Below the pieces are notes generated by a model that ran no database searches, was not told where the DNA came from, and saw only the letters and a list, made by a program, of their open reading frames with translations. Both the position numbers and the translations under genes were made by a program. This document shows positions 3,436 to 43,151 of a stretch of DNA of 64,000 nucleotides, piece by piece. This DNA comes from Clostridia bacterium (GTDB lineage Bacteria > Bacillota > Clostridia > Christensenellales > Aristaeellaceae): positions 14,795 to 78,794 of the forward strand of contig CAAGII010000016.1 of the NCBI GenBank assembly GCA_900769875.1. Reading direction: 5' to 3'. Position 1 is the stretch's first letter. Each line of letters begins with the position of its first letter.

Positions 3436-3447
3436 CTCTATCTCTCC

Positions 3448-5617: not shown

Positions 5618-5648
5618 GGTTCTTGTCCCTCCCTTTGTTCGTCGTTGC

Positions 5649-7537: not shown

Positions 7538-7538
7538 C

Positions 7539-10457: not shown

Positions 10458-10646
10458 GTAAGCGGTCATACCTCCTTTGAATGTGGCTGTGAACTTCCCT
10501 GCCGGGCGACTGCCCACTCAAACGTTTTCGATCGAAAGCGCATTGAAAAGCCAGGACCAAGGCAGGCTGATCCATCGAAATGAACACCTTCATTTTGATG
10601 AAACGGAATGTACGCACGCTCATCGCGGACGTATCATCTGTCCATT

Positions 10647-10675
10647 AGTATACCATAGCGTCCATGCGCTGTCAA
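10647..10675 (-). promoter_or_regulatory. sigma-A type promoter for the ABC/glycan-uptake operon
   Basis: The minus strand reads TTGACA (10675-10670), a 17-nt spacer, then TATACT (10652-10647). This predicts a ~180-nt leader before ATG 10457. Confidence 0.6.
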
Positions 10676-10775
10676 TCAAACGAGCAGAATTTATCGTGCA
10701 TTTTATACAGAAAATATTGAGTCTGTCTGTACGAAACGTGACTTTCGTCCGAAATACGGCCGAAAAACGCGATAA

Positions 10776-10801
10776 GGCGGGAACATCCGCATGTTCCCGC
10801 C
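10776..10801 (-). terminator. probable intrinsic terminator after the GH42 gene
   Basis: The hairpin is GGCGGGAACAT-CCGC-ATGTTCCCGCC (11-bp stem). On the minus strand it is followed by TTATCGCGTTTTTCGG, so the U-tract is not immediately adjacent. Confidence 0.45.
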
Positions 10802-10820
10802 CGACAGGCGCACCGCTCCG

Positions 10821-12869
<2,049 letters not shown>

Positions 12870-23505: not shown

Positions 23506-25389
23506 TTATTCTTCCCCGGAGGCGGGGTTTTCCTCCATCTGTGCCGCTTCGGGGTGCTGCGCTTCTACGGATTGCTGCGCTTCCTCGGGCTGCTGCGCTT
23601 CTTCGGATTGCTGCGCTTCCTCGGATTGCTGCGCTTCCTCGGGCTGTAGCGCCTGCTCAGGCATGGCTGTGCGCAGCCTCTCCGCCTCCTGCGCCTCCTG
23701 CTGATAGGCTGCGCTGACGGTCATGCGCACATGCCCTTTGGCGAGCGCATCCGCCATGTCAAAATGCGTGTGATCCATGTGCTGCTGCTCTGCGCCCGCA
23801 GCGCTCTGGTAGACCAGCTTCACCGCAGGTTCCTCAGCCGCATGCTCACGCCACTCAAACACACAGATCACCGACAGAAGAATCAGAATCGGAATGATGC
23901 TGTAATGGTAGCGCACCTGCGTTTCCAGCAGCATAAAGCTCAGCGCTGAGGCAAGGAAGTACAGCATCGACAGCATCTGCAGCGGCATGGGCGCGCGCTG
24001 CCTGCGCCATGCCTCGATGGCGCCCAGCATCGAAAGCAGCAGGATCGCCATATACATCGGTCTTGTAAGCGTACGCACCTTTTCCAGCGACGCGCTCAGT
24101 TCCTCGGTCAGCGTCTGCTGCTGCCCCGCCCAGAGCAGATTCCAGTCGATGCCGAAATCATCCGTCTGCCAAAGATCGCGGAACTTGTAGACCATCAGAT
24201 TCAGCACGTTTTCGGGCTCTGCGGACATGCGGTCGATTGCGCGCTGCATGGCTGCGGCGTGCGCCTCGTTCGCTGAACCGGTCTGCTCGTAGGCGTCTGC
24301 GAAGAAATCCGCGTCCTCCTGATTCCAGATGCCCTTGTGCTCGGCATTCAATCCCACCATCATGTTGTAGCCGGAGGCGTTCAGTCCGGAAGCCGGCTGC
24401 TCCATGATGATGTCCTTGATGGCGCGCGTCATCACGTTTGCGCCGCCAAGGTAAAACATGACCGCCACCAGCACGCACAGCCAGCCCTTGGAGAGCATCA
24501 CACGCATGCCCTCGGTCTTGGCCTTGCCCGTCGGATCGCCGCCGGTCATCACCTGCACCACAGCCCACGCCGCCATCAGGAGCAGCGCCATGGGGCGGAT
24601 CGCGCCCGCAATCGCGGTCATGACGCCAATGAGCGGCAGCGTCAATACCGCGCGCAGCGGAGAGGCGACATACAGGCTGTTCGGGCCGCGGTCGATCTCG
24701 TATACCATCATGTCCAGCGCCAGCAGCGTCATCATGGTGTAGCTCGGCTCGGTCGCCACCATGGTGCCGTACAGGATGTGCGAGGGCCACAGGCTCATCA
24801 GCGCCATGCCTGCCACCGAGGCCGCCTTGCCCATGGTACGGTACGCGATGCGGCCTACCAGCACCACCGAAATCATGCTGCACACGAGGTTCGCATACAG
24901 CGCGTTCTGCACGCTTGCGCCAAAGACGCGGAACACGGGCAGCAGCACCAGCATTGGGTAGCCGATGGTGTGCGGATACTGCGCGATATAGCGGCGATCC
25001 ACCTCTGCCTCGGGCGATAGCATGGTGCCGCGGAGAAGATGATTGGCCATGCGGTAATACGTTTCAAAGTCGGACTCGGGCTCCAGTACAATCCCGTGAA
25101 TCGTGCGAAGGCGCAGATACAGTCCCAGTCCGATCACCAGCGCGGATGCGGACAGCCACAGCGTGTTGCGCAGCCATAGCGGCATCCGGGGCGCGGCGCG
25201 GTTCACCACACGCACGCCAAGGAAGCATGCCAGCATCATACCCGTCAGGGACAGAAGGTACGCGCCCTGCAGCAGATACTCGCGCTCGGTTGCCCGGGTG
25301 TTGTATTCCAGCGCCGCGCTCAGCGCAAGGCCCATGCACATGATGAACAAGCCCAGCATCACATATTCCAGCGCGTTTTTTTTGCGCAT
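23506..25389 (-). CDS. GT-C-type (PMT_2/ArnT-like, GT39/83-like) polytopic glycosyltransferase with an acidic repeat tail
   Basis: The first-loop string LEPESDFETYYRMANHLLRG is followed by YPHTIGYPMLVLLPVFRVFGAS...LVCSMISVVLVGRIAYR...LMSLWPSHILYGTMVATEP. This matches the layout of PMT_2-type GT-C enzymes. It has ~12 TM helices. The C-terminus is PEEAQQSEEAQQSEEAQQPEEAQQS. Confidence 0.65.
   Translation of the reverse strand: MRKKNALEYVMLGLFIMCMGLALSAALEYNTRATEREYLLQGAYLLSLTGMMLACFLGVRVVNRAAPRMPLWLRNTLWLSASALVIGLGLYLRLRTIHGIVLEPESDFETYYRMANHLLRGTMLSPEAEVDRRYIAQYPHTIGYPMLVLLPVFRVFGASVQNALYANLVCSMISVVLVGRIAYRTMGKAASVAGMALMSLWPSHILYGTMVATEPSYTMMTLLALDMMVYEIDRGPNSLYVASPLRAVLTLPLIGVMTAIAGAIRPMALLLMAAWAVVQVMTGGDPTGKAKTEGMRVMLSKGWLCVLVAVMFYLGGANVMTRAIKDIIMEQPASGLNASGYNMMVGLNAEHKGIWNQEDADFFADAYEQTGSANEAHAAAMQRAIDRMSAEPENVLNLMVYKFRDLWQTDDFGIDWNLLWAGQQQTLTEELSASLEKVRTLTRPMYMAILLLSMLGAIEAWRRQRAPMPLQMLSMLYFLASALSFMLLETQVRYHYSIIPILILLSVICVFEWREHAAEEPAVKLVYQSAAGAEQQHMDHTHFDMADALAKGHVRMTVSAAYQQEAQEAERLRTAMPEQALQPEEAQQSEEAQQSEEAQQPEEAQQSVEAQHPEAAQMEENPASGEE
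23538..23661 (-). repeat. in-frame 18-bp tandem repeat (about 4 near-perfect and 2-3 degenerate units) encoding (E-E-A-Q-Q-S/P)n
   Basis: Plus-strand units are ttgctgcgcttcctcggg (23572-23589), ctgctgcgcttcttcgga (23590-23607), ttgctgcgcttcctcgga (23608-23625) and ttgctgcgcttcctcggg (23626-23643). Degenerate copies lie on both sides. Confidence 0.9.
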
Positions 25390-28300
25390 CAGGCATTCCT
25401 CCCCTCGTTGGCTTTCAGATCGCGTCTGCCCATTGCCCTGCGAATCAGGGCGCGCAGCAGCACGGTGGCTGCTGTGATGACCATCAGGTCATGACAAAGC
25501 ATGAAGGTGAACAGCTGCTTGTTGTTGTCCGCAAAGCCGTTGCCGATCACCGTCAGCGGATACTGGAAGGCGCCTGTCAGCATCACGCACACAAACAGGA
25601 ACGCCAGCAGCCGCTGCTGCGCGCAGCGCCCGCGCGAGCACATGACGCGGATGCACACAATCAGCCCAGCGCCGTAAAGCAGCACATACTGCCAGAAGGC
25701 CTGACACGCAGTGTAGGGACGCACAGCCTGCCAAAGATTGAAGCGGTACATTCCCTCGTGCAGATCATAGCGCTCGTCCGTATACGCCATGAAATGACTG
25801 TGCAGGGTGCGGGACTCCTGCGCCGCGTGGTCAAGCATTTTCAGCAGATCGCCCGGATGGCGCAGATAGTAGCGCACCATGGTAAGCGCGTTGATTTTGC
25901 TGTAGATGGCTTCCTCCGCCTCGTCCGACAGCATGGGATACACATAATCCTCGTCCGCATGGTAGGCATGCTTGCCGATGTCCGCCTTGAGCACGGGATC
26001 AAGCCCCAGCTCCTCCATGGCGGCGTCCACATCGTCCGCAATCATCAGCGCGCCGTAGAACACGCTCTGCCAGACCGTCTGCTTGGAGGAAATCTCGTCG
26101 TTCTTGCGGTACACGCCCACGCTATCCCATGCCACATAACCGCACAAAAGCGTCATCACCAGCGCATAGCACACGCTGCGAGCCCACATGGGCAGACGCT
26201 GTACCATGGTCGAATGCTCCTTGCGCACAGGGCGATGGTAGACGCCCAGCACGATCATCAACGCAAGCCCTGATGGCATCGCCAGCAGCAGCTGCGCCTT
26301 GGAGCATGTCAGCATCCTGACGGAGACGGCAAGCAGCGCCAGCCAGAGCATGCGCCGCCTGCCTGCGCGCGGCATGACCATCAAATGCACCGCGCAGGCC
26401 AGCATCAGCATCAGCGAGGTGCAGATGGTGCTTTCGCCAAAGAGCGAATTGTACCATGCCACATAGTTTTCGCCAAAGAGCATCGCCACCAGCAGCACGC
26501 CCATGAAAAGCGTGCCGCGTCCAAGCAGCGGATAGAGATCGTGCAAAAGCAGAAGCACCGCCGCAAGGGTCAGCGCCAGCAGAATCCATGCCTGCACCAG
26601 CGTGGAGTACGGCGAGCCGGTTACAAGGCTCCACAATCGCACCAGCATCGACGGGAAAATGAGCGAATAGGTCGGGTCGGCGGAGGTCAGACGCTGCGGA
26701 TGGAACGGCTCGCGGTAATCGTATTCCTCAACCACGCGCGTGGCAAGCTGATCGCTGCTGTGATCCAGCAGCTCCCTTGTCCAGTACAGATCGATCTGCT
26801 CCATCATGCGGCCAAAGTCGCCGTTGTTCACACCGCCGATGTGCCGTGCAGGCAGCAGCAGACAGCAGCAGATCGTAAATGCCATGATCGCGCAGAGCCA
26901 CATGACCGCGCTGCGTCCCGGTCTCAATCTGTCAAGGCGGGCAAAAGGCGCGCGCACCTCCGCATGCTGCCACGGGAGCGACAGTGGCGCGTCATGCGAA
27001 GCAAGGAAGGCGAGCAGCCGCTGCGTGAACAGCGCAAGCGCCGCGATACCGCCCAGCAGACCAAGCCATCCCAGGAAAAAGAACATCACCTTTGTCATGG
27101 CTACGTCAAGTCCGCCTGTCAGGATCATGGAGACAGGCAGCATCAGCGCGCCGCACGCACAAAGCGAGGAAAGCGCAAGGCACAGCCTGCGCAGCCCCTG
27201 TCTGCACGCAATGGACAATCCAAGCAGAGCAAGCGCCGCGCCAATCATGCGCCAGGTGGTCGCCTCGAGGCCGCCCTCGCCAAACAGCAGGCGAAGCAGC
27301 ATCAGGGGCGAAGGGCGTTCAAAGCCGCGCTCCCAGCCTTCATACACCACGCGCCCGTTGATCGCGTCATAATAATGGTTCTTCTTGTCGCGCAGAAGCT
27401 GCGTCACAAGCTCCGGATGCTTCAGGCAGTAGGCCACGCGCTTTTCAAGGCTGATGGCCTCGCGCAGATGCTCGTCACCGCGCGGGTCATGCGCAAAGAG
27501 CGACGCATCGTCATAATAGGAGCGGCCGATGTCACGCTGATAATCCGCGTCCAGCCCGAAGCCCGCCAGCACGCGCTCAGGATCGTCCGTCACCTGAAGG
27601 TAGCCCTGAAACACCGCCAGATGATTGGCCGCGTCCGAGCGGATATCCGCCTGGGCTGCGACGCTCACCGCCACGCTTGTGCCGCCCGCGACGAGCGCGG
27701 CAGCCGTCAGCACGCAGTAGAACGGCCTCTCGCAGCGCTGTGGCAGCGCATGCCAGACCGTCATCAACACGCAGATAACCACAGCCGGCAGGAAGGCAAG
27801 CATCTGCGGCTGCGTCTGTAACAGCGCAACGCCCGGCACAAGCACCATCGCTACCCGCAGGAAGCCCGAGCCCCGGTCGCCGCACAGTGCGTTGACCGTG
27901 CAGCCGATCAGGAGCATCAGCCACGCCATGGCGGCGCCCATGGGATAAAGGCTGTTCAGATAGGCGGTGATATCGCTGTGCATCATCGCCAGCGTCATCA
28001 CCGCAGCGCTCGCGATGGCTGCCGTGCGGCTGCGCCGGTACAGCCCGCTCACCGCAAGGTAAACGCCCAGCGCGATCATCAGCGCGTAGGCGCAGGCAAG
28101 CAGCCTTGTGTCAAAGAGAAGGCCAAAGGGCTGCGTCACAAGGCGCACCAGCGCTGCCGGGTACAGCATGCCGGGCTGTCCGGGCTTCAAAAGCGACGCA
28201 TAGTCGAACCGCTGATAGGCGAACGCTTGCGCCACGTCGCCCGGCTGCACCTGCTCGTCCGCCCATGTGATGCGCAGCTGCTCCATCGCGCCGACATAGG

Positions 28301-28415
28301 AGGCGTCGGAGGTTACGCTGACCTGCGGCGCAGCAAAGAGCGTATACAGGATGGCGCAAAGCGCCAGCAGCGCGGCCACCGCGCCCACTTCCCTGCCCCT
28401 TCGCTGATCGGTCAT
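25389..28415 (-). CDS. 1008-aa polytopic membrane protein built from two copies of an unrecognised module
   Basis: GAGGTGG lies 4 nt upstream of ATG 28415. There are ~20 hydrophobic helices. Halves aa 1-495 and 500-1008 share ordered motifs (see findings). The stop overlaps the next start (TGATG at 25387-25391). Confidence 0.8.
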   Translation of the reverse strand: MTDQRRGREVGAVAALLALCAILYTLFAAPQVSVTSDASYVGAMEQLRITWADEQVQPGDVAQAFAYQRFDYASLLKPGQPGMLYPAALVRLVTQPFGLLFDTRLLACAYALMIALGVYLAVSGLYRRSRTAAIASAAVMTLAMMHSDITAYLNSLYPMGAAMAWLMLLIGCTVNALCGDRGSGFLRVAMVLVPGVALLQTQPQMLAFLPAVVICVLMTVWHALPQRCERPFYCVLTAAALVAGGTSVAVSVAAQADIRSDAANHLAVFQGYLQVTDDPERVLAGFGLDADYQRDIGRSYYDDASLFAHDPRGDEHLREAISLEKRVAYCLKHPELVTQLLRDKKNHYYDAINGRVVYEGWERGFERPSPLMLLRLLFGEGGLEATTWRMIGAALALLGLSIACRQGLRRLCLALSSLCACGALMLPVSMILTGGLDVAMTKVMFFFLGWLGLLGGIAALALFTQRLLAFLASHDAPLSLPWQHAEVRAPFARLDRLRPGRSAVMWLCAIMAFTICCCLLLPARHIGGVNNGDFGRMMEQIDLYWTRELLDHSSDQLATRVVEEYDYREPFHPQRLTSADPTYSLIFPSMLVRLWSLVTGSPYSTLVQAWILLALTLAAVLLLLHDLYPLLGRGTLFMGVLLVAMLFGENYVAWYNSLFGESTICTSLMLMLACAVHLMVMPRAGRRRMLWLALLAVSVRMLTCSKAQLLLAMPSGLALMIVLGVYHRPVRKEHSTMVQRLPMWARSVCYALVMTLLCGYVAWDSVGVYRKNDEISSKQTVWQSVFYGALMIADDVDAAMEELGLDPVLKADIGKHAYHADEDYVYPMLSDEAEEAIYSKINALTMVRYYLRHPGDLLKMLDHAAQESRTLHSHFMAYTDERYDLHEGMYRFNLWQAVRPYTACQAFWQYVLLYGAGLIVCIRVMCSRGRCAQQRLLAFLFVCVMLTGAFQYPLTVIGNGFADNNKQLFTFMLCHDLMVITAATVLLRALIRRAMGRRDLKANEGRNA

Positions 28416-28449
28416 GCTTCCACCTCATTTCCATAAGCGTATGCGCAAA

Positions 28450-31089
28450 TCAGAAACGGCTGTTCGTTTCCACAGCGCGTGAGCGCTCCGCCGCTTCCTC
28501 CGGCGTGATCGCGCCATCCTCCAGCGCGAGGCTGTCCACCATCGCAAGGCCGAAGCGGAACAGCCTGCCATCCGCGTCCTGCTGGCATCCGACCAGCAGC
28601 TGTCCGTCATAGGGGACGCACGGGCTGGTGAAGCTCGTCTGCACCGCGCCGTTCACGGCGACCGTGTAGTCGTCCCCGTGCTTTGCGATGACCAGGTGCA
28701 TGCTGCTGCGCCCGGAAGGCAGCTCATACCGCCACGTCTGCAGCCCGCCGAGATACAGCGTGACCGACTCCGTATCGTCCTGCCGCAGCATCAGTCCGCG
28801 ATAGCCAACATCCGGCTGCTCAGCAAAGCAGGACAGGTACACGCCCTTGTTGCTGCCGCGCTGGAGCACGACGGTGGTATCCAGCGTCCAGTCCTTATTG
28901 GCGTCAAAGAGCTGCACGCCGGTCTCCACACAGCGTTCCGCGCCATTGCCGAGGAAGGGGTGCGGCATGGTGTAGGCAACCGTTGAAACAACTGCCTCAT
29001 GCACCGTGGGAAGCGCGGCGGGCTCATACCGCCACGCAAGGATTTCCACCTCCGTCAGACACCCGGCCAGCACGGTCAGGCTGTTCACGCGGGTCTGGCT
29101 CTGGCGGAACACCTGTCCGCTCCCGTTCAGCTCAGCGCCCACCAGCAGCTGGCCTGCGTAGGCTTCCGCCGGAGATAGCACGCCGTCAAGCAGCTTCTCA
29201 CCGTTCAGATACACGGTGTAGGCATTCATGTTCTTCACCACGGCAAGGCGCGCTGGTTCATCGAGGACGACAGGCACGCTGATGCCCTGATTGTTGCCAA
29301 ACACGATATTGAGGCTTCCGTCCGAAAGCTGACGAACCAGCAGTCCGCGATAGTGATCGGTTTCCTCTGCAAAGTCGGCAAAATACACACCGTCGCCGCT
29401 ATTTTGCGCGGGCAACAGCTCGGACAGCAGGGTAAAGCACGAGCCCGCGTCCTCAAACAGGCGCAGTCCGGTATCCACATACGCGGGATACCCATCCGTG
29501 CCGCCCACAAACTGCTCCGGCAGTGTGTAGATGACCTCGGGCTTCTCCACGCCCTGCCCCAGCGGCAGCGGCATAGCAGGCAGCGTCGGGGGATTCCAGG
29601 CCTGCACCTGCGCGCTGGTCATCACGTGGTCATACACTTCCAGATTCAGCACATGCGTGCGGCTGAAACGGAATTTTTCACCGTTCGCGCTCAACTCCTG
29701 ACAGCCGACAAGCAGGTTGCCTGCGTAGGCGTTGCAGGGAAGCTGATAGCTGCTGAGCACTACGATACCGTTCCAGTAGACGGTGTAATGGTCAATATCC
29801 TTGACGATGGCGATGGTTGCGGTATCGCCCTGATACTCGGGCATCTGTATTTCATACTTTTCGCCCAGCAGCAGCGTCACCGTATGCTCCCTCGTCTTGC
29901 GCATCAGCAGGCCATAGTAGCCGTCCGCCACATTTTCGGAGAAGCAGGACATGTACACGCCGTCGTCTCCAACGGTTTTCATGTCGATACGGGTCAGCAG
30001 CGTCCACGATTGATAGCGATTGTCGTAGAGTTTGACGCCGGTGTCGATCATGCGGTTCACACCGTCGCCCGTGAACTGGGTTTCCATCGCGTAGGCGGCA
30101 TACTGGGCTGTGGCTGCGTTCTCTGTGCGGTTCCACAGATGTCCGTCGTCCCGCCTGCGGTCGGGCAACTGGAAGCGTTCGCTCAGATAGCGCCCAACGT
30201 CGGCGGTCAGCTTGGCGATGCCGCTGTATTGCAGATGACCGACATCATAAAAGTCGCTCGCGGGATCAATGCCGATCTCCTGCCAGTTTTTCAGATAATT
30301 CAGCGTCGGCACGCCGTATTCCTCGGCGATGGCAGTCAGGCGGTTGAGCTTCCTTGCTTCGCTCTCCGTCGCTTCATAGGGCGCAATCAGCAGCACCAGC
30401 TGCACGCCTTTGCTTTTACACAGGTCGATCATGCTGCGCAGATACTTTTCATTTTTATCCGAGAGCGGCTCCTGCCCGGTGATGGAGGCGTAATCCAGCA
30501 AATTGACATGCGCGATACGATCGGTCGGCAGCTGAATTCTGTTCACATCCAGCTCGCGGGTATAGTACCCGAAATCAAAATCGCTTGCTTCCAGCTCGCT
30601 GTAGCGGGTGTGGTAGTAGGGCATGCCCCACAGCGCTTCCACGGTCTTTTGCCATGTCGGAAAGGAAGCGAACGCGTTTGCGATCTTGTCAAGGCTCGGG
30701 CGAAGCGCAAGGGTGTTCTTAAGCGCGGCAGTTTCGGCGGAATAATCCACATCCGTGCCCGCCATGAACACCTCGACCACCGCAACCTGCGGCTTCTGGT
30801 ATTTCAGACCCTCCTTGAGGAAATAGTACGAGTTCCACAGCGGCTGCATGCCGCCCCACAGGCTGTAGCTTGCAATGCCGTAATCATCCCAGAGCATGCC
30901 GTTATCCACGTTCATGCCCACATGGGAGGAGCCGACCATCAGCACATCCACCGTGTCGGCAGGCAGGGCGTAGTATTTCTTCATGGGGGCGATCGCGTCG
31001 TCCGCCTTGGTGGACAGCACCTGATCCGTTACATAGTACGCTCCCAGCAGGAGCGTCAGAAACAGCACAACCGCAGCCAGCTTTTTCAT
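28450..31089 (-). CDS. membrane-anchored SGNH/DltD-like O-acyltransferase partner fused to three LamG/ConA-like domains
   Basis: I chose the start at MKKLAAVVLFLTLLLGAYYV (ATG 31089, GGAAAGGAG upstream). Block I-like LMVGSSHVG and block V-like FYDVGHLQYSG are present. Three ~170-aa repeats follow, each ending in YAGxLLVG(C/A)...G..FR. Confidence 0.7.
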   Translation of the reverse strand: MKKLAAVVLFLTLLLGAYYVTDQVLSTKADDAIAPMKKYYALPADTVDVLMVGSSHVGMNVDNGMLWDDYGIASYSLWGGMQPLWNSYYFLKEGLKYQKPQVAVVEVFMAGTDVDYSAETAALKNTLALRPSLDKIANAFASFPTWQKTVEALWGMPYYHTRYSELEASDFDFGYYTRELDVNRIQLPTDRIAHVNLLDYASITGQEPLSDKNEKYLRSMIDLCKSKGVQLVLLIAPYEATESEARKLNRLTAIAEEYGVPTLNYLKNWQEIGIDPASDFYDVGHLQYSGIAKLTADVGRYLSERFQLPDRRRDDGHLWNRTENAATAQYAAYAMETQFTGDGVNRMIDTGVKLYDNRYQSWTLLTRIDMKTVGDDGVYMSCFSENVADGYYGLLMRKTREHTVTLLLGEKYEIQMPEYQGDTATIAIVKDIDHYTVYWNGIVVLSSYQLPCNAYAGNLLVGCQELSANGEKFRFSRTHVLNLEVYDHVMTSAQVQAWNPPTLPAMPLPLGQGVEKPEVIYTLPEQFVGGTDGYPAYVDTGLRLFEDAGSCFTLLSELLPAQNSGDGVYFADFAEETDHYRGLLVRQLSDGSLNIVFGNNQGISVPVVLDEPARLAVVKNMNAYTVYLNGEKLLDGVLSPAEAYAGQLLVGAELNGSGQVFRQSQTRVNSLTVLAGCLTEVEILAWRYEPAALPTVHEAVVSTVAYTMPHPFLGNGAERCVETGVQLFDANKDWTLDTTVVLQRGSNKGVYLSCFAEQPDVGYRGLMLRQDDTESVTLYLGGLQTWRYELPSGRSSMHLVIAKHGDDYTVAVNGAVQTSFTSPCVPYDGQLLVGCQQDADGRLFRFGLAMVDSLALEDGAITPEEAAERSRAVETNSRF
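28483..30102 (-). repeat. three tandem ~170-aa domain repeats at protein level (LamG-like), approx 29590-30102, 29023-29535 and 28483-28983
   Basis: Columns align across the three copies. Examples are DTGVKLYDN/DTGLRLFED/ETGVQLFDA, GVYMSCFSE/GVYFADFAE/GVYLSCFAE, YYGLLMRK/YRGLLVRQ/YRGLMLRQ, HYTVYWNG/AYTVYLNG/DYTVAVNG and YAGNLLVGCQ/YAGQLLVGAE/YDGQLLVGCQ. Confidence 0.85.
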
Positions 31090-31105
31090 GGGAAGCTCCT
31101 TTCCG

Positions 31106-32599
31106 TCAGAACTGGAAGTAGATAAACGCCGCCGCGTCAAAGCCCGGGCCGTAGATGCCCAGTACCAGGACCGAAAGCACGCCGGCGATCACAACCGTCC
31201 AGCGAAGCCAGGCTTCCTGTCTGCCAAGCGTTTCGCGCAAGCGTATGCCGCGCTCCTGCATCACGCTGACTGCGAGCATCACCGCAAGGCTTACGCCCAG
31301 CGTCACCCACTGCGCCGTGTCAAAGCCCAGCTGCAGGAGGCTGCCATTGAGCAGTACCTCGGGGTTCCACACAAACAGGCGGCGCAGGATGCCAAACGCA
31401 TCGCTCACCGTGTTGGCGCGGAAAAAGACCCACGCAATGTCAATCAGCACAAAGGTCGTCAGCATCTGCAGCAGCCGGTGGCTGAACGTATCGGTGCGCA
31501 TGCCGCACCGGCGCATCAGCTTCTGGCGCAAGGGCTTGAGGAGACTGCCAATCACCTGATAGAGGCCGTTGAGCGCGCCCCAGATGACATAGTTCCATGC
31601 CGCGCCGTGCCACAGACCCGAGCACAGGAACACAATCATGATATTGAGATAACGGCGCACCTTTCCCTTGCGGTTGCCGCCCAGAGGAATGTACAGATAA
31701 TCGCGGAACCATGTGGAAAGCGAAATGTGCCATCTGCGCCAAAAGTCCGCCACAGAGGTAGCGAAGTAGGGACGGCGGAAGTTTTCCATCAGGTCAAAGC
31801 CCATCACCTGCGCCGCGCCGATGGCGATGCAGGAGTAGCCCGCAAAGTCGCCGTACACCTGCACTGCGAAGAGCAGCATCGCGACGAGCAGCTCCAGGCC
31901 GCTGTAGTAGGAGGAATAGTTGAACACCTGATTGACCACGATCGCAGCGCGGTCGGCAATCACGATCTTCTGGAAAAAGCCCCACACCATCATCAGCAGA
32001 CCATCGCGCACCGCGGAAAAGGAGAAGCGGTGCGGCTCGTCAAACTGGGTCAGCAGATGGGAGGAGCGCTCAATCGGGCCTGCGACCAGCTGCGGGAAGA
32101 AGCTGACAAAGGTCGCGTACCTGAAGAAGTTCTTCTCCACGCGCACCTGACGGCGGTACACGTCCATGGTATAGGAAAGCGCCTGAAAAATGTAGAACGA
32201 GATACCGACGGGCAACAGCACATCAAACCCGGGCTTGACCGCCGCAAGACCCATAGAGGCGCGCACCGTGTTGATGTTGTCCACCACAAAGCCGAAATAC
32301 TTGAAGAAGAACAGGATACCCAGATTGATGGCAAAGGAGAGCGCAATCCACGCCTTTTCATGGACAAGCACGCGCTTGCCCGCCTCCCTTCGCTGCATGG
32401 CGCGCCCGATGAGCAGACCCGAGCCGAAGGTGACCAGCGTGGACAGGAGCAAAAGCAAGGCGTAGGTCGGATTCCAGCACATGTAAAAGGCATAGGAGGT
32501 CACCAGCAGCCAGTACATGCGCAGCCTGCCCGGAATGGCATAGTACAAAAGCACCACCGCCGGGAAGAAGAGCAGGAATTCAATGGAGTTAAACAGCAT
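31106..32599 (-). CDS. MBOAT family O-acyltransferase (AlgI/DltB/WssH-like)
   Basis: It reads MLFNSIEFLLFFPAVVLLYY and carries the conserved histidine region FWRRWHISLSTWFRDYLYIPLGGNRKG. Both are hallmark strings of AlgI-type MBOATs. Confidence 0.9.
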   Translation of the reverse strand: MLFNSIEFLLFFPAVVLLYYAIPGRLRMYWLLVTSYAFYMCWNPTYALLLLLSTLVTFGSGLLIGRAMQRREAGKRVLVHEKAWIALSFAINLGILFFFKYFGFVVDNINTVRASMGLAAVKPGFDVLLPVGISFYIFQALSYTMDVYRRQVRVEKNFFRYATFVSFFPQLVAGPIERSSHLLTQFDEPHRFSFSAVRDGLLMMVWGFFQKIVIADRAAIVVNQVFNYSSYYSGLELLVAMLLFAVQVYGDFAGYSCIAIGAAQVMGFDLMENFRRPYFATSVADFWRRWHISLSTWFRDYLYIPLGGNRKGKVRRYLNIMIVFLCSGLWHGAAWNYVIWGALNGLYQVIGSLLKPLRQKLMRRCGMRTDTFSHRLLQMLTTFVLIDIAWVFFRANTVSDAFGILRRLFVWNPEVLLNGSLLQLGFDTAQWVTLGVSLAVMLAVSVMQERGIRLRETLGRQEAWLRWTVVIAGVLSVLVLGIYGPGFDAAAFIYFQF

Positions 32600-32687
32600 G
32601 GCAATTCTCCGTTCCGTCGATCGTCTTGTGATGCTCAGGCAGGTTCACGTCTTGCTTGCGCCCGTTTGTCGTCAATGTGCCGCCGAC

Positions 32688-34988
32688 TCACTCCTGCTTG
32701 CCCTTGTTGCGCCGATGCGCGCGCAGCGTGAGAATCAGGATGCCGATGAACACCACCAGCATGCTGCCAAGACCCGTCAGAAGAAGGATGATCGGCTCGC
32801 GGTTTTCCATGATGACGCGCTTGAAGCTCGGCGCTTCCTCGCCGTTCTCCACCGCGGCGGCGGTCGTGAACTGATAGCTGTTCGCCTGACCGTGCGTATC
32901 CACCAGCACGGCTTCCCTGTTCAGCGCCCAGCGGAGCTTTTCGCTGGATAGGCGCTCGGTCAGCGCCCGGATACCCTCCGACGCTGGCGCGGAAATCACC
33001 AGCATGGCGCGGTTGACCGAATAGGGCGAGACCAGCAGCTGGATCACGCCCACCTCGGCGGCATATTGCTGGTTGAGGATCAGCTTGTCGTTGGACTCAA
33101 AGCGGGTCAGATCATCGGTATAGCGGAAGTGGAGGCTGCCGTTCAGGCTGGCGATCATGCGGTTGGTCGATGCCTTGCCCACCAGCACAAGATTCCGGTC
33201 GGCATGGCTGACCTCGGTAAACTCATGGTCGCAGATCACGCTCAGGCTGCCGTAGGGATCGCTGCCCGCGCCAAGCATGGCCACCGCGCGGCCGCACAGG
33301 TTCAGCTCCTCAGCGTCCGGGAGCGCCGGCAGCACCACAAGCACATCATTCATGCGGCTGTTGCGCTGGAAGGGCGCGGGACGGTTGCCAAGGCTCAGGC
33401 TGACCTTTTCGCCCTGAGGCAGATAGAGCACGGAATTCTCGGCAATGTACGCCCACGGCATGTTTAGCTGACGGGGCGTGCAGTCCAGATCCTTGACCTC
33501 AAGGTCGAAGGTGATGGTCAGATAGGTGCCTGCCACGCCCACAGCGTCCGCGGGCACGGAGAACGCCACAGTCTCACCGTCCGCGCCATCGCGGGTCAGC
33601 TTGCGTGAGTACATGGGCAGGCTGTTGCCCCAGTAAACCGTCATCAGGCTGCGATCCCAGTCCAGATTCTCCGAATAACGGATGTGGAAGGTGAACTTGC
33701 CCTCGCTGGAAAGCACATAGTCCTCCGGCACAGGCAGGTAGAGGGTCGCCGTCTGGTGGAACGGGCCGACAAAGCTTGCGCCGTGTCCCAGGATATCCTT
33801 GAAGGTGTACTGTCCCTCCACAGCCAGCGCGGAAAGCTTGCCGGCCTCGATGTAGGCTCTTGCTTCGCCCACACTCACATGCGCGGTGCGATCGTGCAGC
33901 TGCGATATGCGGCTCTCGTCATTGAGCAGGCGGGCGGCCTCCAGCAGCGCGGCGCGCTCGCTTGCAATCACAAGCAGGTACTCGCGCTCTCCGTCCGTCA
34001 CGCGCTGAATGAGCGCTCCGGTCGGCGGCACCTCCTGATTGAGCAGCGCAAGCAGGCGGGCGGGTGTGTTGTCCTTCAATCCAAAGTAGATCACATGCTT
34101 GCGCGAGGTATCAGAAATTCTCGCGACCTCCACATCGTTCTGCGCGGAAAGCGCCGTGCCAAGGCCTGCCATCAGATTCATGGCGGCGGTCAGCTCGTCG
34201 TTGTCCATCACATCGGACACCGTGATGGCGCATTCGGCGCCCGTCTGATCCATCATCGACAGGAAGGGATAGGGGAACACGCTCAGCTCCTCCGCCTTCT
34301 CGGACAGCTCGTAGGCGATGCGCAGACAGGTGGATTCGTCAAACTTGATCCAGTTGGCGCCGTTGTAGTCGTCCGTACAGCCCTCGTTGTCGGTCAGGCG
34401 TACGTAGGCGCCGATTTCCAGCAGGTTGTAGCCGGGGACAAGCAGCTCAACCGGCACGGCGATATACAGCACGGTGCGGGCACGCTCCACACCCACCCGC
34501 ACATAGGTGGAGTAGAAAGGCGTACCGTTCATGTAGAACGTCATCGACGATAGGTCGGACAGAATCAGGTCGGAGGCGGTATAGCACACCCGCATCAGCG
34601 CCATGGTCGGCGTGACATACTCCGGCACCTCCACATACAGGCTCAGCACCGAATAGATGCCGCGGATATACTGCACCGAGCCGAAGCCGTAGTCGGCAAA
34701 ATAGGCGCCGTCCAGCCGCGCGTTCTGGAACGCCTGCTCCAGCTCGCTCTGCCGCTCCAGCTCCTGCTGAACGATGAGGTCGTTCACGCCCAGCGGCATC
34801 CGCTCCTCCGTCTCCGGCGGGAGAGGGGTCGGGGTCGCCGTCAGGTCGGACACGGGCGTGAGAACCGCTTCGGGCGCGGCAAGATCCGTCGCGTCGTTTT
34901 CAGCCAGTCCTGCTGCCGGGGCGAAGGCGCACAAAAGCGCAAGCATCCATGCAGCGATACGCAGAAAAGCTCGATTTTGACCCTTCAT
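32688..34988 (-). CDS. BcsB-like (YdaN-like) extracytoplasmic polysaccharide-synthase subunit with a C-terminal TM anchor
   Basis: I chose the start at MKGQNRAFLRIAAWMLALLCAFAPAAGLA (ATG 34988, GGAGGG 9 nt upstream). Two BcsB-like segments are present (SSMTFYMNGTPFYS...GYNLLEIGA and RSLMTVYWGNSLPMYS...). The C-terminal helix is PIILLLTGLGSMLVVFIGILILTL. Confidence 0.65.
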   Translation of the reverse strand: MKGQNRAFLRIAAWMLALLCAFAPAAGLAENDATDLAAPEAVLTPVSDLTATPTPLPPETEERMPLGVNDLIVQQELERQSELEQAFQNARLDGAYFADYGFGSVQYIRGIYSVLSLYVEVPEYVTPTMALMRVCYTASDLILSDLSSMTFYMNGTPFYSTYVRVGVERARTVLYIAVPVELLVPGYNLLEIGAYVRLTDNEGCTDDYNGANWIKFDESTCLRIAYELSEKAEELSVFPYPFLSMMDQTGAECAITVSDVMDNDELTAAMNLMAGLGTALSAQNDVEVARISDTSRKHVIYFGLKDNTPARLLALLNQEVPPTGALIQRVTDGEREYLLVIASERAALLEAARLLNDESRISQLHDRTAHVSVGEARAYIEAGKLSALAVEGQYTFKDILGHGASFVGPFHQTATLYLPVPEDYVLSSEGKFTFHIRYSENLDWDRSLMTVYWGNSLPMYSRKLTRDGADGETVAFSVPADAVGVAGTYLTITFDLEVKDLDCTPRQLNMPWAYIAENSVLYLPQGEKVSLSLGNRPAPFQRNSRMNDVLVVLPALPDAEELNLCGRAVAMLGAGSDPYGSLSVICDHEFTEVSHADRNLVLVGKASTNRMIASLNGSLHFRYTDDLTRFESNDKLILNQQYAAEVGVIQLLVSPYSVNRAMLVISAPASEGIRALTERLSSEKLRWALNREAVLVDTHGQANSYQFTTAAAVENGEEAPSFKRVIMENREPIILLLTGLGSMLVVFIGILILTLRAHRRNKGKQE

Positions 34989-35005
34989 GTGCATCATACC
35001 CTCCA

Positions 35006-36262
35006 TCAATCAGCCGATCTTTCCGTTTTATACCAGGTAACTTCCGTATTGGTGATGATGCGCTTCACCGTCATGTACAGCGCGCGCAGGACGACAACCA
35101 CCCACAGCTTGCAGTAGGAGAACAGCATCAGCATGACGATGAGCGCCGATTCCAGGTTGAACTCGTTCTTTTCAAGGCTCAGCGTCAGCATCACGTTGAA
35201 TTCAAACAGGATGCAGGCCATGACCCACACCAATGTGGACAGCCCTCCGAGGGTCACGTGCGCGTAGCCCAGGATGCCCAGCACAAAGATGGTGTCGGAG
35301 CATACCAGCGCCGTGGCCATCAGCAGGTAAACCAGCGAGTAATACAGTACGTCCAGGCGCATCCTGCCGCCCCGGGGATCGAAGATGTACTTGAAGTTGT
35401 TGGCCAGCACGTACAGATTGCCCATGGCCCAGCGGGTGCGCTGCTTGAACCAGATGTCCAGCCGGAACGGCTCCTGCTCCCATGTGACGGCAGCGGGGAT
35501 CTGCCGGATTTTGTAGCCCATGCGGTAAATGCGGAAGCTGATTTCCGTATCCTCGGAAAGCGCCTTCGGGTCCCATCCGCCGATCTTCTCAATGATGTGG
35601 CGGTGGATCACGAAATTCGTACCGGGAATGGTGCACAGTCCGAAGAAGAACCACCGACCCGCCTGATTCATGCACTGGTGCGCGAGGGTCTCGATGTTGA
35701 CAAAGCGGGTCAGCAGCGAGGCGTTGCGGTTGCGGGTGCGGAACTTGCCGATTACCGCGCCCAGCGAATCATCCGCCATCAGGTGCTCCACCAGAATGCG
35801 AAGCGCCTGCGGCTCCGGCGTGTTGTCCGCGTCATAGATGGCGAACACCGAGCCGCGCGCCACCGAGTAGCCGATATTCAGCGCGTTTGACTTGCCCGTG
35901 CCGCCCACCACATTGTCGGTGCTGACCACCATCAGCATGCGATCCGGATTCTCCGCCTGAATGGCGGCGAGCGCCTCCGCCGTGTTGTCGGACGAGTTGT
36001 CGTTGATGACGATGATCTCATAGCGATCCTTCGGATAGTCGAAGCGGAGCAGCGCCTGCACCGTGCGGCGGATGACGGCGCTCTCGTTATGCGCGGGCAC
36101 CATCACCGATACGAAGGGGTACTCCTCCAGCGGTATGTGAGGGTCCTCCTTGCCCATGCGGTAGTAATAGATGAAGCCGCCCACCGACAGCAGCACATTG
36201 ATGCCCATCAGCGTCCAGATGGCGATCATGGAAAAAAGGGTCAGGTAATCAATCAGACTCAT
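35006..36262 (-). CDS. processive family-2 glycosyltransferase (YdaM/BcsA-core-like synthase, no PilZ domain)
   Basis: It reads VSVMVPAHNES, AIYDADN (the DxD motif), LSEDTEISFR (TED-like) and KQRTRWAMGN (QxxRW). TM helices lie at both ends. It is 418 aa with no C-terminal extension. Confidence 0.88.
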   Translation of the reverse strand: MSLIDYLTLFSMIAIWTLMGINVLLSVGGFIYYYRMGKEDPHIPLEEYPFVSVMVPAHNESAVIRRTVQALLRFDYPKDRYEIIVINDNSSDNTAEALAAIQAENPDRMLMVVSTDNVVGGTGKSNALNIGYSVARGSVFAIYDADNTPEPQALRILVEHLMADDSLGAVIGKFRTRNRNASLLTRFVNIETLAHQCMNQAGRWFFFGLCTIPGTNFVIHRHIIEKIGGWDPKALSEDTEISFRIYRMGYKIRQIPAAVTWEQEPFRLDIWFKQRTRWAMGNLYVLANNFKYIFDPRGGRMRLDVLYYSLVYLLMATALVCSDTIFVLGILGYAHVTLGGLSTLVWVMACILFEFNVMLTLSLEKNEFNLESALIVMLMLFSYCKLWVVVVLRALYMTVKRIITNTEVTWYKTERSAD

Positions 36263-37827
36263 TTTTCCACGCTCCTTTTGTCCGTACGCTGTTTCGCGTC
36301 CCTGAGCTTTCTGTATCGCGTCGGATGAAGCATGCTGCTGCGCATTGCCCGGCGCGCGAGGAAGATGGCGATGGCGAAGAAGGTGCTTGCGACGATCACG
36401 AACAACATAATCAGCTTGTTGCTGGTCTGAATCTGCTGCGTCATGTACTGCTCAAAGCCGCGCTCGAACCGGTACTCCTCGTACTCAAAGGGCTCGTAGG
36501 CAAGGCTGACCTGCGTTCCGTTGACCTCCACCACGCCCAGGGCGCTGCGATACACATAGTCGCTGCCGATGTAGACCGAGTGATCCATGTCCGTCAGGCT
36601 CTTCAGGGCGCGGCGGCTGCGCTTGAGCGTCTGCACAAAGCGGCGCAGGGTCTCCAGATCGTCGTTCACGTTCAGGTAAATCGCCTGCGCGTAGGCCGTG
36701 GTGAACGCGCCCTCATCCTGCGAGTAGGGCGCAAGCAGCTGATGACCGTCATACCATGCGAGGTTTTCGCCGTCCGCGCGATCGAGGAGCTGATCGTCGC
36801 TGTCAAAGAGCAGCACCGTCCTGAAGCCCTGAATGGCCTCCAGCCCGCGCTTGCTGAACAGGTAGGCCTCGGGTGCCTCCAGCGCCACAGGGTACACGCC
36901 GTAGCGCGTGTAGGCGCTGTAGGCGGTCGACAGCTGACTTTTGTAGGTTTCCATATCCACGCGCGAGAGCGATACCAGCGGCGCATGCAGCACAATGCCC
37001 GCGCCGGTGGACTGAATGTAGCGCAGCCATTCACAGAAGCGCTTCATGGACGGATAGTCCGCGTTCTCATACACGGGCATCACGCACACCGCGTAGGGCA
37101 CGCCCTCCTCCCTGAGCATATCCGTCACGCGCGAGAGATCCTCCGGCTCATAGAAGGGATAGATATTGTCCAGCACCAGATACTGGCCATAGGCGACGGG
37201 GTCGTTCTTGTACGGCCACATCCACGCCTGCAGGCAGGTAGCCAGCTCCGCTGCCAGCAGCGGCTCGTTCGCGTCGCAATACGCCATGTGGGTGATGCTG
37301 CCCAGCGTTTTGCACAGCGGATAGGATTGGCTGTCCACAAACAGCGATCCGCCAATGACGGCGGATTCGCCGTCCAGCAGCGCGATGCCGGAGCGCGACA
37401 GCAGCATGTCGCTCGTGCTGCCCGATTCCGTTTCGCAGCGCACCACCACAGACCCTGTCAGCATCACGGTTCTCGCCAGCTGCTCCAGCGCGCCGCCGCC
37501 CACCACGAACACAGGCCTTGTGCCCGTGCGCAGCTCATGAGCGGTCTGCTCATTCAGGATGCGGTTTTCGGCAAGCAGCACAATCACCGCATCATACCCG
37601 TCGAGCGATTGGGCGGTCCAGGCGTCTGCATAGTCGCAGCGAAGCGACGAGTAGGTCATGATTCTTTGCAGCTCCCGCAAATTGGCGGACGCCACGCTGT
37701 CATTCTCCGCGTCGTGCAGCACCAGCAATCGCAGCACCTCCGCCCGTGCTGCCTGCGGCGGAGGGCAGCATGTTAGAAGCAGCGTAATCGCGAGCAGCCA
37801 CGCTGTCCATCGCAATTTACACATCAT
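36259..37827 (-). CDS. YdaL-like extracytoplasmic protein, possibly DUF2334/polysaccharide-deacetylase-like fold, with a C-terminal TM anchor
   Basis: It has a signal peptide (WTAWLLAITLLLTCC). It reads YLVLDNIYPFYEPEDLSRVTDMLREEGVPYAVCVMPVYEN...GIVLHAP. The C-terminal helix is LIMLFVIVASTFFAIAIFL. The family label is from memory and position in the operon. Confidence 0.55.
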   Translation of the reverse strand: MMCKLRWTAWLLAITLLLTCCPPPQAARAEVLRLLVLHDAENDSVASANLRELQRIMTYSSLRCDYADAWTAQSLDGYDAVIVLLAENRILNEQTAHELRTGTRPVFVVGGGALEQLARTVMLTGSVVVRCETESGSTSDMLLSRSGIALLDGESAVIGGSLFVDSQSYPLCKTLGSITHMAYCDANEPLLAAELATCLQAWMWPYKNDPVAYGQYLVLDNIYPFYEPEDLSRVTDMLREEGVPYAVCVMPVYENADYPSMKRFCEWLRYIQSTGAGIVLHAPLVSLSRVDMETYKSQLSTAYSAYTRYGVYPVALEAPEAYLFSKRGLEAIQGFRTVLLFDSDDQLLDRADGENLAWYDGHQLLAPYSQDEGAFTTAYAQAIYLNVNDDLETLRRFVQTLKRSRRALKSLTDMDHSVYIGSDYVYRSALGVVEVNGTQVSLAYEPFEYEEYRFERGFEQYMTQQIQTSNKLIMLFVIVASTFFAIAIFLARRAMRSSMLHPTRYRKLRDAKQRTDKRSVEK

Positions 37828-38689
37828 ACACCAGCTCTGCTTCCACGGCCTTGCGGAAACGGATCATATCGTTGCCGTAGATTTCCTTGTTGTACTGCTT
37901 GCAGGCTACGCGGACATCCACCTTGGTGCCTGCCTCCAGAATATGGTCGAAGCGATTGGTGGTCGCAAGCGCGTTGAGCAGTCTGCCGCGCACGATGCTG
38001 CTGTCGCGCTCGTTGGTGGTCAGAAGAATGACCAGCGAGCCCTTGTCATCCACCGTATACACACGGTCCTCCACACGGACGCTGTCCCTGATGACCTCGC
38101 TGATGCACTTGCGCAGGTCAAGGAAGCTGTTGGCAGGCAGCATGCCGCGCAGCTCCGACTCATAGCGCAGCTGCACCTCCATCAGCGACACAGGCAGGTT
38201 GTTGCGTTCGCAGTAGTGCACCATGATCTGCAGATCGCGATAGAGCGCGCGCAGGTTGTACATGCCGGTGACATTGTCCACCAGCACCAGCTCCTCCACC
38301 TGCTGGCGCAGCATCTCATTCTCGCTGAACAGACCCTGAATGCCGGCGCAGTACATCTGCGCGCCCACAGCGCCAAGCATGGGCAGCGGCGCAAGCGCAT
38401 AGTCCAGCAGATACAGCACATGTCCGCGGATGTACACGCCATAGAGCTTGTAGGTGATCCACACGCAGGTAATGGTGCCGCACAGCGCAAGGCAGGCCGA
38501 GGGTCGCCCGAAATAGCCGACAAGCACCGCGACGTCCATGGCAAAGAGCACCACCAGGTAGGTCACCCGCATCTCCTCAGACGCAAAGGTCATGATCAGC
38601 GCCTGTGCCATTGCCCAGAGGATCAGTAGCAGCATCGCTACGTCACGCAGAAGCTGGGCCTGTTGTTCCGTTCTTCTCACGGCACTCAC
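37817..38689 (-). CDS. membrane protein with a degenerate GGDEF domain retaining the RxxD I-site (YdaK/PelD-like candidate c-di-GMP receptor)
   Basis: Four N-terminal TM helices precede DNVTGMYNLRALY (compare DxLTGLxNRR). The I-site RVED (aa 205-208) lies exactly 5 residues before DDKGS, which occupies the GG(D/E)EF position (38036-38077). The GTG start overlaps the upstream stop (GTGA). Confidence 0.75.
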   Translation of the reverse strand: MSAVRRTEQQAQLLRDVAMLLLILWAMAQALIMTFASEEMRVTYLVVLFAMDVAVLVGYFGRPSACLALCGTITCVWITYKLYGVYIRGHVLYLLDYALAPLPMLGAVGAQMYCAGIQGLFSENEMLRQQVEELVLVDNVTGMYNLRALYRDLQIMVHYCERNNLPVSLMEVQLRYESELRGMLPANSFLDLRKCISEVIRDSVRVEDRVYTVDDKGSLVILLTTNERDSSIVRGRLLNALATTNRFDHILEAGTKVDVRVACKQYNKEIYGNDMIRFRKAVEAELVYDV

Positions 38690-40203: not shown

Positions 40204-40247
40204 GCCGCTCCTCCTTTCCTGATGAAGATGGGCTGGCCGGGCGCGTG

Positions 40248-41858: not shown

Positions 41859-41894
41859 ATGCGCATCACCTCTGACATGCATTTGCCCCGCTTC

Positions 41895-41922
41895 ATTGTA
41901 CAGCTTCATGACGGTTTGTCAA
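41895..41922 (-). promoter_or_regulatory. sigma-A promoter of the EPS operon
   Basis: The minus strand reads TTGACA (41922-41917), a 16-nt spacer, then TACAAT (41900-41895). It lies ~35 nt upstream of ATG 41858. Confidence 0.6.
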
Positions 41923-41950
41923 TAGGAAGCGGCTGGAAAAAGGCCGCTCA

Positions 41951-43087: not shown

Positions 43088-43122
43088 TCGTATACGCCGC
43101 CTTTCAATTGTATACCACTGTA

Positions 43123-43151
43123 ATTTTACCACCCGCAAAAATGGCTGTCAA
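43123..43151 (-). promoter_or_regulatory. sigma-A promoter of wecB
   Basis: The minus strand reads TTGACA (43151-43146), a 17-nt spacer, then TAAAAT (43128-43123). Confidence 0.6.

Follow-up and report, generated by a model that had tools for sequence, protein, structure and literature searches.

A double WsfD/YfdI-family membrane protein with one canonical and one degenerate module, encoded in a predicted exopolysaccharide operon of gut Clostridia

We analyzed a stretch of 64,000 nucleotides of contig CAAGII010000016.1 from a Clostridia bacterium (assembly GCA_900769875.1); this whole stretch is referred to as the window. The subject of this study is a gene located at 25389..28415 on the minus strand, which encodes a membrane protein of 1008 amino acids (aa) that had attracted attention in a first-pass annotation made from the sequence itself. 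The open reading frame (ORF) is present as described there. It belongs to an operon of 11 co-directional genes (23506..43138, minus strand) that overlap or are closely spaced. Residue numbers refer to the 1008-aa protein unless stated otherwise. Using the NCBIfam model NF051875 (“glycan biosynthesis hexose transferase WsfD”; 452 positions, cutoff 80 bits) and AlphaFold2 models, with their predicted local distance difference test (pLDDT) and predicted template modelling (pTM) scores, the gene can be divided as follows (TM, transmembrane):

25389..28415, minus strand: double-module gene, two fused WsfD/YfdI_N-family modules with about 20 predicted TM helices; complete ORF of 1008 aa plus stop (NF051875, AlphaFold2 model)
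27000..28415, minus strand: N-terminal module (N-module), aa 1-472, 10 predicted TM helices; NF051875 133.9 bits, high pLDDT, degenerate signature
26916..26999, minus strand: Arg-rich cytoplasmic linker between the modules, aa 473-500; rich in Lys and Arg, pLDDT <50 at aa 475-491
25392..26915, minus strand: C-terminal module (C-module), aa 501-1008, 10 predicted TM helices, putatively catalytic; NF051875 245.7 bits, full signature, AlphaFold2 model, Foldseek matches to proteins of the GT-C fold

The first-pass annotation had proposed that the protein is an internal tandem duplication, in which three motifs (A, B and C) recur in the same order and at similar spacing. All six motif strings were located (A at aa 34-51 and 529-545, B at aa 268-301 and 785-818, C at aa 327-343 and 846-862), spaced as described. 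Comparison of aa 1-495 with aa 500-1008 by BLASTP gave a single colinear alignment of 488 columns with 22% identity (E=2e-12); it pairs motifs A, B and C of one half with their counterparts in the other half. The Smith-Waterman score between the two halves was 193, versus 41.7±5.9 for shuffled C-halves (z=25.7) and 47.5±8.6 (z=16.9) when the shuffling was done inside blocks of 25 residues, which keeps the TM/loop pattern of the sequence. The annotation had named profile-profile self-alignment as the analysis on which the duplication would stand or fall; performed with hhalign on alignments from 32 homologs, it gave a probability of 100% (E=1.4e-42, 476 columns), and the duplication stands. Because the BLASTP, shuffling and hhalign results and the shared NCBIfam model all agree, the similarity between the halves is far above that expected from chance or TM composition bias. 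The internal duplication is therefore real, and the protein contains two colinear copies of one 10-helix module arranged head to tail.

The view that this module is unrecognised had to be abandoned. Both halves score above the NF051875 cutoff, the N-half over model positions 2-439 and the C-half over positions 2-451, and the whole protein scores 368 bits in two stretches. In addition, PF27133 (YfdI_N) is present in the precomputed annotation of a 98%-identical protein (P0001) and of all other database homologs; only an older local copy of Pfam-A, which predates PF27133, gave no match for the full protein or either half. Judged by these sequence matches, both halves belong to the WsfD/YfdI_N family, which is a recognised family in curated NCBIfam and in recent Pfam. 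Escherichia coli YfdI matched the module profile with 82.5 bits (E=1e-27), in an alignment that spans the first seven and the last two to three TM helices and leaves the central loop with motifs B and C unaligned. A size of about 450-520 aa, corresponding to a single module, is typical of the family; the protein described here has two complete modules.

The two namesakes of the family have been described in other settings. WsfD of Paenibacillus alvei is a polytopic membrane protein described as adding a branching glucose onto the S-layer glycan from a lipid carrier charged by WsfH, a family 2 glycosyltransferase (GT2), and its proposed acceptor is a glycan containing N-acetylmannosamine (ManNAc) (PMC2943079). 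YfdI of E. coli is described as a glucosyltransferase that modifies the O16 antigen at the periplasmic side (PMC10578602). Both functional assignments are genetic (PMC2943079, PMC10578602). The description of these namesakes as side-chain glucosyltransferases dependent on lipid-phosphate-glucose agrees with the earlier suggestion that lipid-linked donors are used outside the membrane (PMC2943079, PMC10578602).

To compare the modules, an alignment was made of 66 single-module members, 33 diverse N-halves, 33 C-halves and 22 orthologs of a third, single-module paralog encoded in the same operon. Ten columns defined a polar signature: N531, D533, R536, N656, E661, K706, Q708, D963, K966 and D976. 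The residues found at these columns were:

C-halves (n=33): NDRNEKQDKD in 33/33
Single modules (n=66): NDRNEKQDKD in 31/66, most others one position off
N-halves (n=33): the eight most frequent patterns each occur once at most
E. coli YfdI: TDRAEKQDKD, 8/10 shared with the C-module, including all charged residues
Nine further homologs, including four on long contigs (three of them in glycan clusters): NDRNEKQDKD
N-half of the window protein: DSGNMQQDMW, 3/10 matching
C-module of the window protein: NDRNEKQDKD, 10/10

The signature residues and the motifs that accompany them are located at:

26781..26831, minus strand: motif A of the C-module, aa 529-545, VNNGDFGRMMEQIDLYW, first outer loop; N531, D533 and R536 invariant in a 32-sequence alignment
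28263..28316, minus strand: motif A of the N-module, aa 34-51, VTSDASYVGAMEQLRITW; Asp and Arg replaced by S39 and G42, with an Asp two residues upstream (D37)
26433..26474, minus strand: GENYVAWYNSLFGE, aa 648-661, outer end of TM3 of the C-module; signature residues N656 and E661, YfdI counterpart FASFYQEQ
26292..26300, minus strand: K706-A-Q708, in the short outer loop that connects TM5 with TM6 in the C-module; Lys and Gln both belong to the signature, AKNQ in YfdI
25488..25544, minus strand: GNGFADNNKQ...HD, aa 958-976, in the TM9-TM10 outer loop and the first part of TM10 of the C-module; contributes D963, K966 and D976 to the signature, GEGYRDLSKH...FD in YfdI
25830..26063, minus strand: motifs B and C of the C-module, aa 785-862, in an acidic extracytoplasmic loop domain of about 130 aa between TM7 and TM8 (sequence alignment)
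27387..27614, minus strand: motifs B and C of the N-module, aa 268-343; this region holds half of the 28 invariant residues of the N-module, which fall in aa 267-334

The two halves, which the first-pass annotation had treated as equivalent, are therefore different: only the C-half keeps the polar signature of the family. D533, located 13 residues after TM1, is invariant in C-halves and conserved in 94-95% of the singles, and the Arg of motif A (R536) is 94-100% conserved across singles and C-halves; YfdI reads SDFGR at this position. D533 is a candidate catalytic Asp. Structural positions (Gly, Pro and His-Pro) are retained in the N-module, as are its outer-loop motifs, and G788, L790, G804, Y850, H853 and P854 of the motif B/C region are kept in all four module groups. 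In 31/31 close homologs the conservation of the N-module is lower than that of the C-module (mean identity 42.9% vs 59.5%). Based on its sequence, the N-module is probably non-catalytic.

Each module has 10 TM helices in the AlphaFold2 models. The Lys+Arg content of the predicted cytoplasmic loops is 18-22%, versus 0-5% for the short outer loops. According to the positive-inside rule, hydropathy and the model, each module is N-in/C-in and the two modules are parallel in the membrane. With this predicted 10-TM topology the conserved polar residues face outward: motif A, as the first-pass annotation had supposed, the GENY...E stretch, the KAQ loop, the GNGFADNNKQ loop and the acidic loop domain of about 130 aa with motifs B and C are all placed on the outer face.

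The full-length AlphaFold2 model has a mean pLDDT of 81.6 and a pTM of 0.67; for the C-module modelled alone with a more diverse alignment, these values are 86.9 and 0.89. When the full-length model was used in Foldseek searches the scores were diluted, and the high-probability matches in the PDB were all GT-C proteins. The single-module model gave 22 top matches in the PDB, all of the GT-C fold and with probabilities up to 1.00, comprising AglB (the best, E=8e-3), STT3A/B, AftB, Pmt4, Pmt1/Pmt2, ArnT, PIGU, DPY19 and AftA. Beyond these there were four further GT-C-type entries, and the rest had probabilities of about 0.1 or less. The core alignment of the C-module model with Pmt4 comprised about 293 columns with a root-mean-square deviation of 7.9 Å. 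A Foldseek search of the viral database BFVD returned only low-probability matches, mostly to tape-measure and tail proteins, and no phage GtrC.

The solved GT-C enzymes (STT3/AglB/PglB, Pmt1-Pmt2/Pmt4, ArnT, AftB/EmbA-EmbB) are thus the sole high-probability structural matches of the module. They resemble it in being polytopic, in carrying an acidic residue in extracytoplasmic loop 1 and in having the active site at the outer face; this hallmark residue corresponds to D533 in the C-module and is absent from the canonical position in the N-module. They share no sequence similarity with the module, which has 10 TM helices and lacks a large soluble domain at its C-terminus. The earlier suggestion of a GT-C-like protein is upheld by the identity of the 22 top matches but is weakened by their scores (TM-scores of 0.25-0.42, E≥8e-3). 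The structural matches are consistent with, but do not stringently show, that the module is a distant GT-C relative. Several GT-C enzymes act as homo- or heterodimers, such as Pmt1-Pmt2 and EmbA-EmbB, a pairing that the fusion would mimic. To our knowledge, the partner in the dimeric GT-C enzymes is a separate polypeptide, unlike the fused and degenerate partner of the window protein.

The family is small: a search of 1.84 billion representatives gave 518 clusters at 50% identity (E≤1e-3). Among the 150 best cluster representatives at 50% identity, about 30 are double modules of 990-1070 aa, and 54/184 retrieved family proteins contain two full modules. Neighbour-joining placed the N-halves, the C-halves and the third-paralog group in one clade each, with mean within-group distances of 2.17 (N-halves) and 1.34 (C-halves). 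Because the N-halves and C-halves form clades of their own and the N-half distances are larger, the tree indicates one ancient duplication or fusion, after which the N-module diverged faster. Scanning the GTDB species genomes yielded 60 loci, nearly all of them from gut or rumen Clostridia (Oscillospiraceae, Christensenellaceae, Lachnospiraceae), and the double module is present in more than 50 gut Clostridia species. Cultured carriers are Murimonas intestini DSM 26524 and Konateibacter massiliensis. At a few loci only the C-module is matched and the N-part is truncated.

Families were assigned to the genes of the operon by Pfam and NCBIfam scans. In the order of transcription, the operon encodes a UDP-N-acetylglucosamine (UDP-GlcNAc) 2-epimerase, a redoxin+GH8-like fusion, the third WsfD-family protein, a 290-aa protein, a DUF2334 protein, a PgaC-like GT2 synthase, a BcsB-like protein, an MBOAT protein, an 896-aa LamG-containing protein, the double module and a 627-aa polytopic protein. 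The features accompanying the double module are:

28450..43138, minus strand: rest of the operon beyond the double module and the 627-aa partner (Pfam/NCBIfam scans), kept in relatives
23506..25389, minus strand: 627-aa polytopic partner, PMT_2/PMT-type GT-C (orthologs, Pfam), with a C-terminal EEAQQS repeat tail
28450..31140, minus strand: 896-aa protein with one LamG_3 domain (aa 738-883), downstream of the MBOAT gene
32688..35009, minus strand: BcsB-like protein, 773 aa, with a 4-nt overlap with the GT2 synthase gene
35006..36262, minus strand: PgaC/IcaA-like GT2 synthase, 418 aa, no PilZ; 171 bits, below the equivalog cutoff
37817..38689, minus strand: 290-aa protein with a very weak GGDEF-like match (E about 1e-3), found in 30/60 related loci upstream of the DUF2334 gene
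38686..40287, minus strand: third WsfD-family module, a single-module paralog; NF051875 301.7 bits, homologs 505-512 aa
40248..41909, minus strand: AhpC/TSA-redoxin fused to a weak GH8-like domain, 553 aa, kept in 32/60 related clusters

Within 10 kb on either side of the double module at the 60 related loci, we found the 627-aa partner at 53, the BcsB-like gene at 50, the LamG protein at 45, MBOAT at 44, the GT2 synthase at 38 and the epimerase at 34. The stop codon of the double-module gene and the start codon of the 627-aa gene overlap in TGATG. Because its orthologs match Pfam PMT_2/PMT (7/10, three of them above threshold), the 627-aa protein can be regarded as a canonical GT-C. That it might be another WsfD module was ruled out by a hidden Markov model search, and a PDB sequence-profile search with this protein found no relatives. 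Its C-terminus is an acidic EEAQQS/PEEAQQ tail that derives from an 18-bp tandem repeat (23555..23642, 4.9 copies).

The third paralog has a signature, DSTASNYERD, that differs from the canonical one and is conserved within its group (D93, S95, N261, Y263, R501, D511). Judged from the sequence, this protein could have an alternative active site or be a second non-catalytic paralog. Its true start is probably M29 at 40203, which would give 505 aa; this start also removes the overlap with the upstream gene.

The 290-aa protein might, from its weak sequence match, be a degenerate GGDEF-type receptor of cyclic di-GMP for the PilZ-less synthase. The combination of an enzyme resembling poly-N-acetylglucosamine synthase with a BcsB-like partner is an atypical pairing, and the redoxin+GH8-like fusion is an unusual domain pairing for an exopolysaccharide operon. 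In the 896-aa protein three similar segments of about 180 aa can be seen by eye, and a self-BLAST detected no internal repeat at E≤1e-3; its N-terminal part may be an SGNH/DHHW-type acyltransferase partner of the MBOAT protein.

Genes for the lipid-linked donor were searched for as well. No GtrB- or GtrA-like gene was found in the window by Pfam/NCBIfam scans of the ORFs and tblastn; a GtrB-type gene may sit elsewhere in the source genome. A GtrB-type synthase (PgfS/ArnC-like) is present in 15/60 related loci, usually right after the epimerase. For GtrA, a tblastn search of the 60 loci with E. coli YfdG, a query too distant to be sensitive and not backed by a profile search of small ORFs, gave no match. 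One single-module gene on a long contig adjoins a GtrB-like GT2 gene, 41% identical to E. coli YfdH, in a cluster resembling P. alvei slg. Because the pairing of epimerase and GtrB recurs, it hints that the lipid-linked donor could be undecaprenyl phosphate-linked ManNAc (Und-P-ManNAc) rather than the corresponding glucose (Und-P-Glc). The pairs of an epimerase gene followed directly by a GtrB-type GT2 gene are located at L005:13134-15240 and in L022-L047 (15 loci), a quarter of the related clusters. The GtrB-type GT2 of L005 is 80% identical to the GT2 beside a single WsfD-like gene in the slg-like cluster of L070 (L070:7001-9521).

The window protein can be compared with three known systems. 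Both of its halves match the model of WsfD from P. alvei CCM 2051T nearly end to end, and its operon too encodes a UDP-GlcNAc 2-epimerase, the proposed WsfD acceptor containing ManNAc. However, WsfD-type proteins in S-layer/ABC-transporter glycan clusters are single modules of about 500 aa, whereas the window protein has two fused modules, the N-module without the signature, in a synthase-dependent (GT2 + BcsB-like) exopolysaccharide setting with no WsfH-like gene found in the window. YfdI of E. coli K-12 shares the D/R, E, K/Q and D/K/D residues with the C-module. It differs in being a single module of 443 aa whose central loop does not align with motifs B and C, and in being encoded in a three-gene gtr cassette of prophage CPS-53 with the GtrA/GtrB homologs YfdG/YfdH, which were not found in the window. 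The clostridial ccsZABHI locus, responsible for O-acetylated cellulose, likewise has a GT2 synthase, a BcsB-type partner, a glycoside hydrolase, and MBOAT with a partner acyltransferase (PMC7710045). As described, it has no WsfD/YfdI or PMT_2-type GT-C genes, its synthase has PilZ and its hydrolase is a GH5 (PMC7710045). In contrast, the operon in the window has a PgaC-like synthase that lacks PilZ and a GH8-like hydrolase domain joined to a redoxin, and it carries four GT-C-type modules in addition.

Taken together, we favour, with moderate confidence, a covalent pseudo-heterodimer of an active C-module and a non-catalytic N-module, which would decorate an exopolysaccharide. The C-module would be the catalytic unit, with an outward active site formed by D533/R536 together with E661, K706, D963 and K966. 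We infer that it acts alone in catalysis: a GtrB/WsfH-type synthase would supply a polyprenyl-phosphate-sugar, whose hexose the C-module would transfer, outside the membrane, onto a glycan acceptor. This acceptor would be the O-acylated exopolysaccharide produced by the neighbouring PgaC-like GT2 and BcsB-like pair, and the double module would work beside the translationally coupled PMT_2-type GT-C and the third, divergent WsfD paralog. Because the N-module has lost the polar constellation but retained the fold and the loop domain of about 130 aa, it is most likely a non-catalytic partner, an ancient paralog that may serve as scaffold, as dimer interface or in binding of acceptor or lipid. Such an arrangement recalls, by analogy, the Pmt1-Pmt2 and EmbA-EmbB pairs and PIGU. 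The latter is a GT-C-fold subunit of the glycosylphosphatidylinositol transamidase complex and is not known to be catalytic.

Several points weigh against this pseudo-heterodimer. The sole basis for linking it to the polymer of the neighbouring synthase is gene neighbourhood, and no GtrA- or GtrB-like gene lies in the window. The structural match to GT-C enzymes is weak, with no E≤1e-3, a PDB sequence-profile search found no relatives of the module, the family being without a solved structure, and no in vitro biochemistry of any WsfD/YfdI family member was found in the literature. The reference members for the signature were singles validated by context and E. coli YfdI, the sequence of P. alvei WsfD not being among them. 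With respect to the N-module, it shows purifying selection, high pLDDT and many invariant residues. In addition, D37, which is present in this clade, is two residues from the canonical Asp, and the same D-G-S arrangement is 100% conserved in the third-paralog group, as would befit a shifted catalytic site.

These last points lead to the possibility, which we consider unlikely, that both modules are active and have different specificities. The N-module and the third paralog would use the shifted Asp (D-G/A-S instead of N-G-D), and the fusion would add two different sugars or linkages in succession. In agreement with this, the N-module is full length in more than 50 species, D37 aligns with D93 of the third paralog, which is itself 100% conserved and part of the conserved signature of that group, and this third paralog has the best NF051875 score of the three modules. 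However, the signature columns of the N-half hold no conserved residue across the double-module clade, its eight top patterns occurring once each, and an Asp at the shifted position is found in a minority of N-halves. Moreover, R536, E661 and K706, kept even in the distant E. coli YfdI, are lost in the N-module, which is truncated in some lineages.

It is more improbable still that the protein is not a sugar transferase and acts instead as a scaffold, translocase or polymerase/ligase-type secretion component, the names WsfD and YfdI having been given by genetic association. The genetic nature of the family assignments (PMC2943079, PMC10578602), for which we found no in vitro assay of any member, is in line with this, as are the lack of a GtrB/GtrA-like gene in the window and a weak fold match that has PIGU among its entries. 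Yet the high-probability structural matches are to GT-C folds only, and the invariant outward Asp with Arg, Lys and Glu is what is expected of a lipid-phosphate-sugar transferase; in other clusters singles adjoin GtrB-type synthases, and a GtrB-type gene accompanies the double module in 15/60 clusters. Finally, there is next to no probability that the two-module ORF is artefactual, whether as a fusion of adjacent paralogs by misassembly or frameshift, separate WsfD genes indeed existing within the same operon, or as a chance hydrophobic similarity. This reading is refuted by the fused architecture kept across species: the layout of about 1000 aa recurs in the 54 family proteins and in over 50 independent genome assemblies, at identities as low as about 25%. 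The N- and C-halves also fall into separate clades, and the similarity statistics rule out chance.

Two aspects of the favoured pseudo-heterodimer appear to be new, nothing on either having been found in the literature: the conserved fusion of a canonical with a degenerate module, and the location of this fusion in an exopolysaccharide operon of the synthase type with four GT-C-type modules. Likewise, no description of a fused WsfD/YfdI or tandem GT-C protein was found in the literature. With the signature residues all kept in one copy and lost from the other, the natural fusion resembles a mutagenesis experiment and points to D533, R536, E661, K706, D963 and K966. It also suggests that WsfD/YfdI enzymes work as dimers. 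In a wider and tentative proposal, to which we assign a rather low probability, the protein would be the first recognised fused GT-C pseudo-heterodimer and the core of an undescribed Gram-positive pathway that decorates a synthase-made exopolysaccharide after its export. If so, up to four GT-C-type modules (the double WsfD, the divergent WsfD and the PMT_2-type protein) would use Und-P-linked donors, possibly Und-P-ManNAc, in a hybrid of synthase-dependent secretion and Gtr-type extracytoplasmic glycosylation that is widespread in gut Clostridia. The conservation of the operon suggests that a synthase-dependent exopolysaccharide, both O-acylated and extracellularly glycosylated, is made by many Clostridia of gut and rumen, the cultured Murimonas and Konateibacter strains among them. 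No such combination is described for the ccs cellulose locus of clostridia. Surface glycans of this kind bear on biofilm formation, phage resistance and host interaction in the gut.

Downstream ORFs of 422, 208 and 268 aa were considered as members of the system and rejected, being missing from all 60 related loci. The region upstream of the operon (841..12869 of the window) is a carbohydrate-utilisation region not related to the double module, which encodes a DUF5696 protein, a Yip1-domain protein, an NHL-repeat protein, two ABC permeases, a 992-aa solute-binding protein and a GH42 beta-galactosidase.

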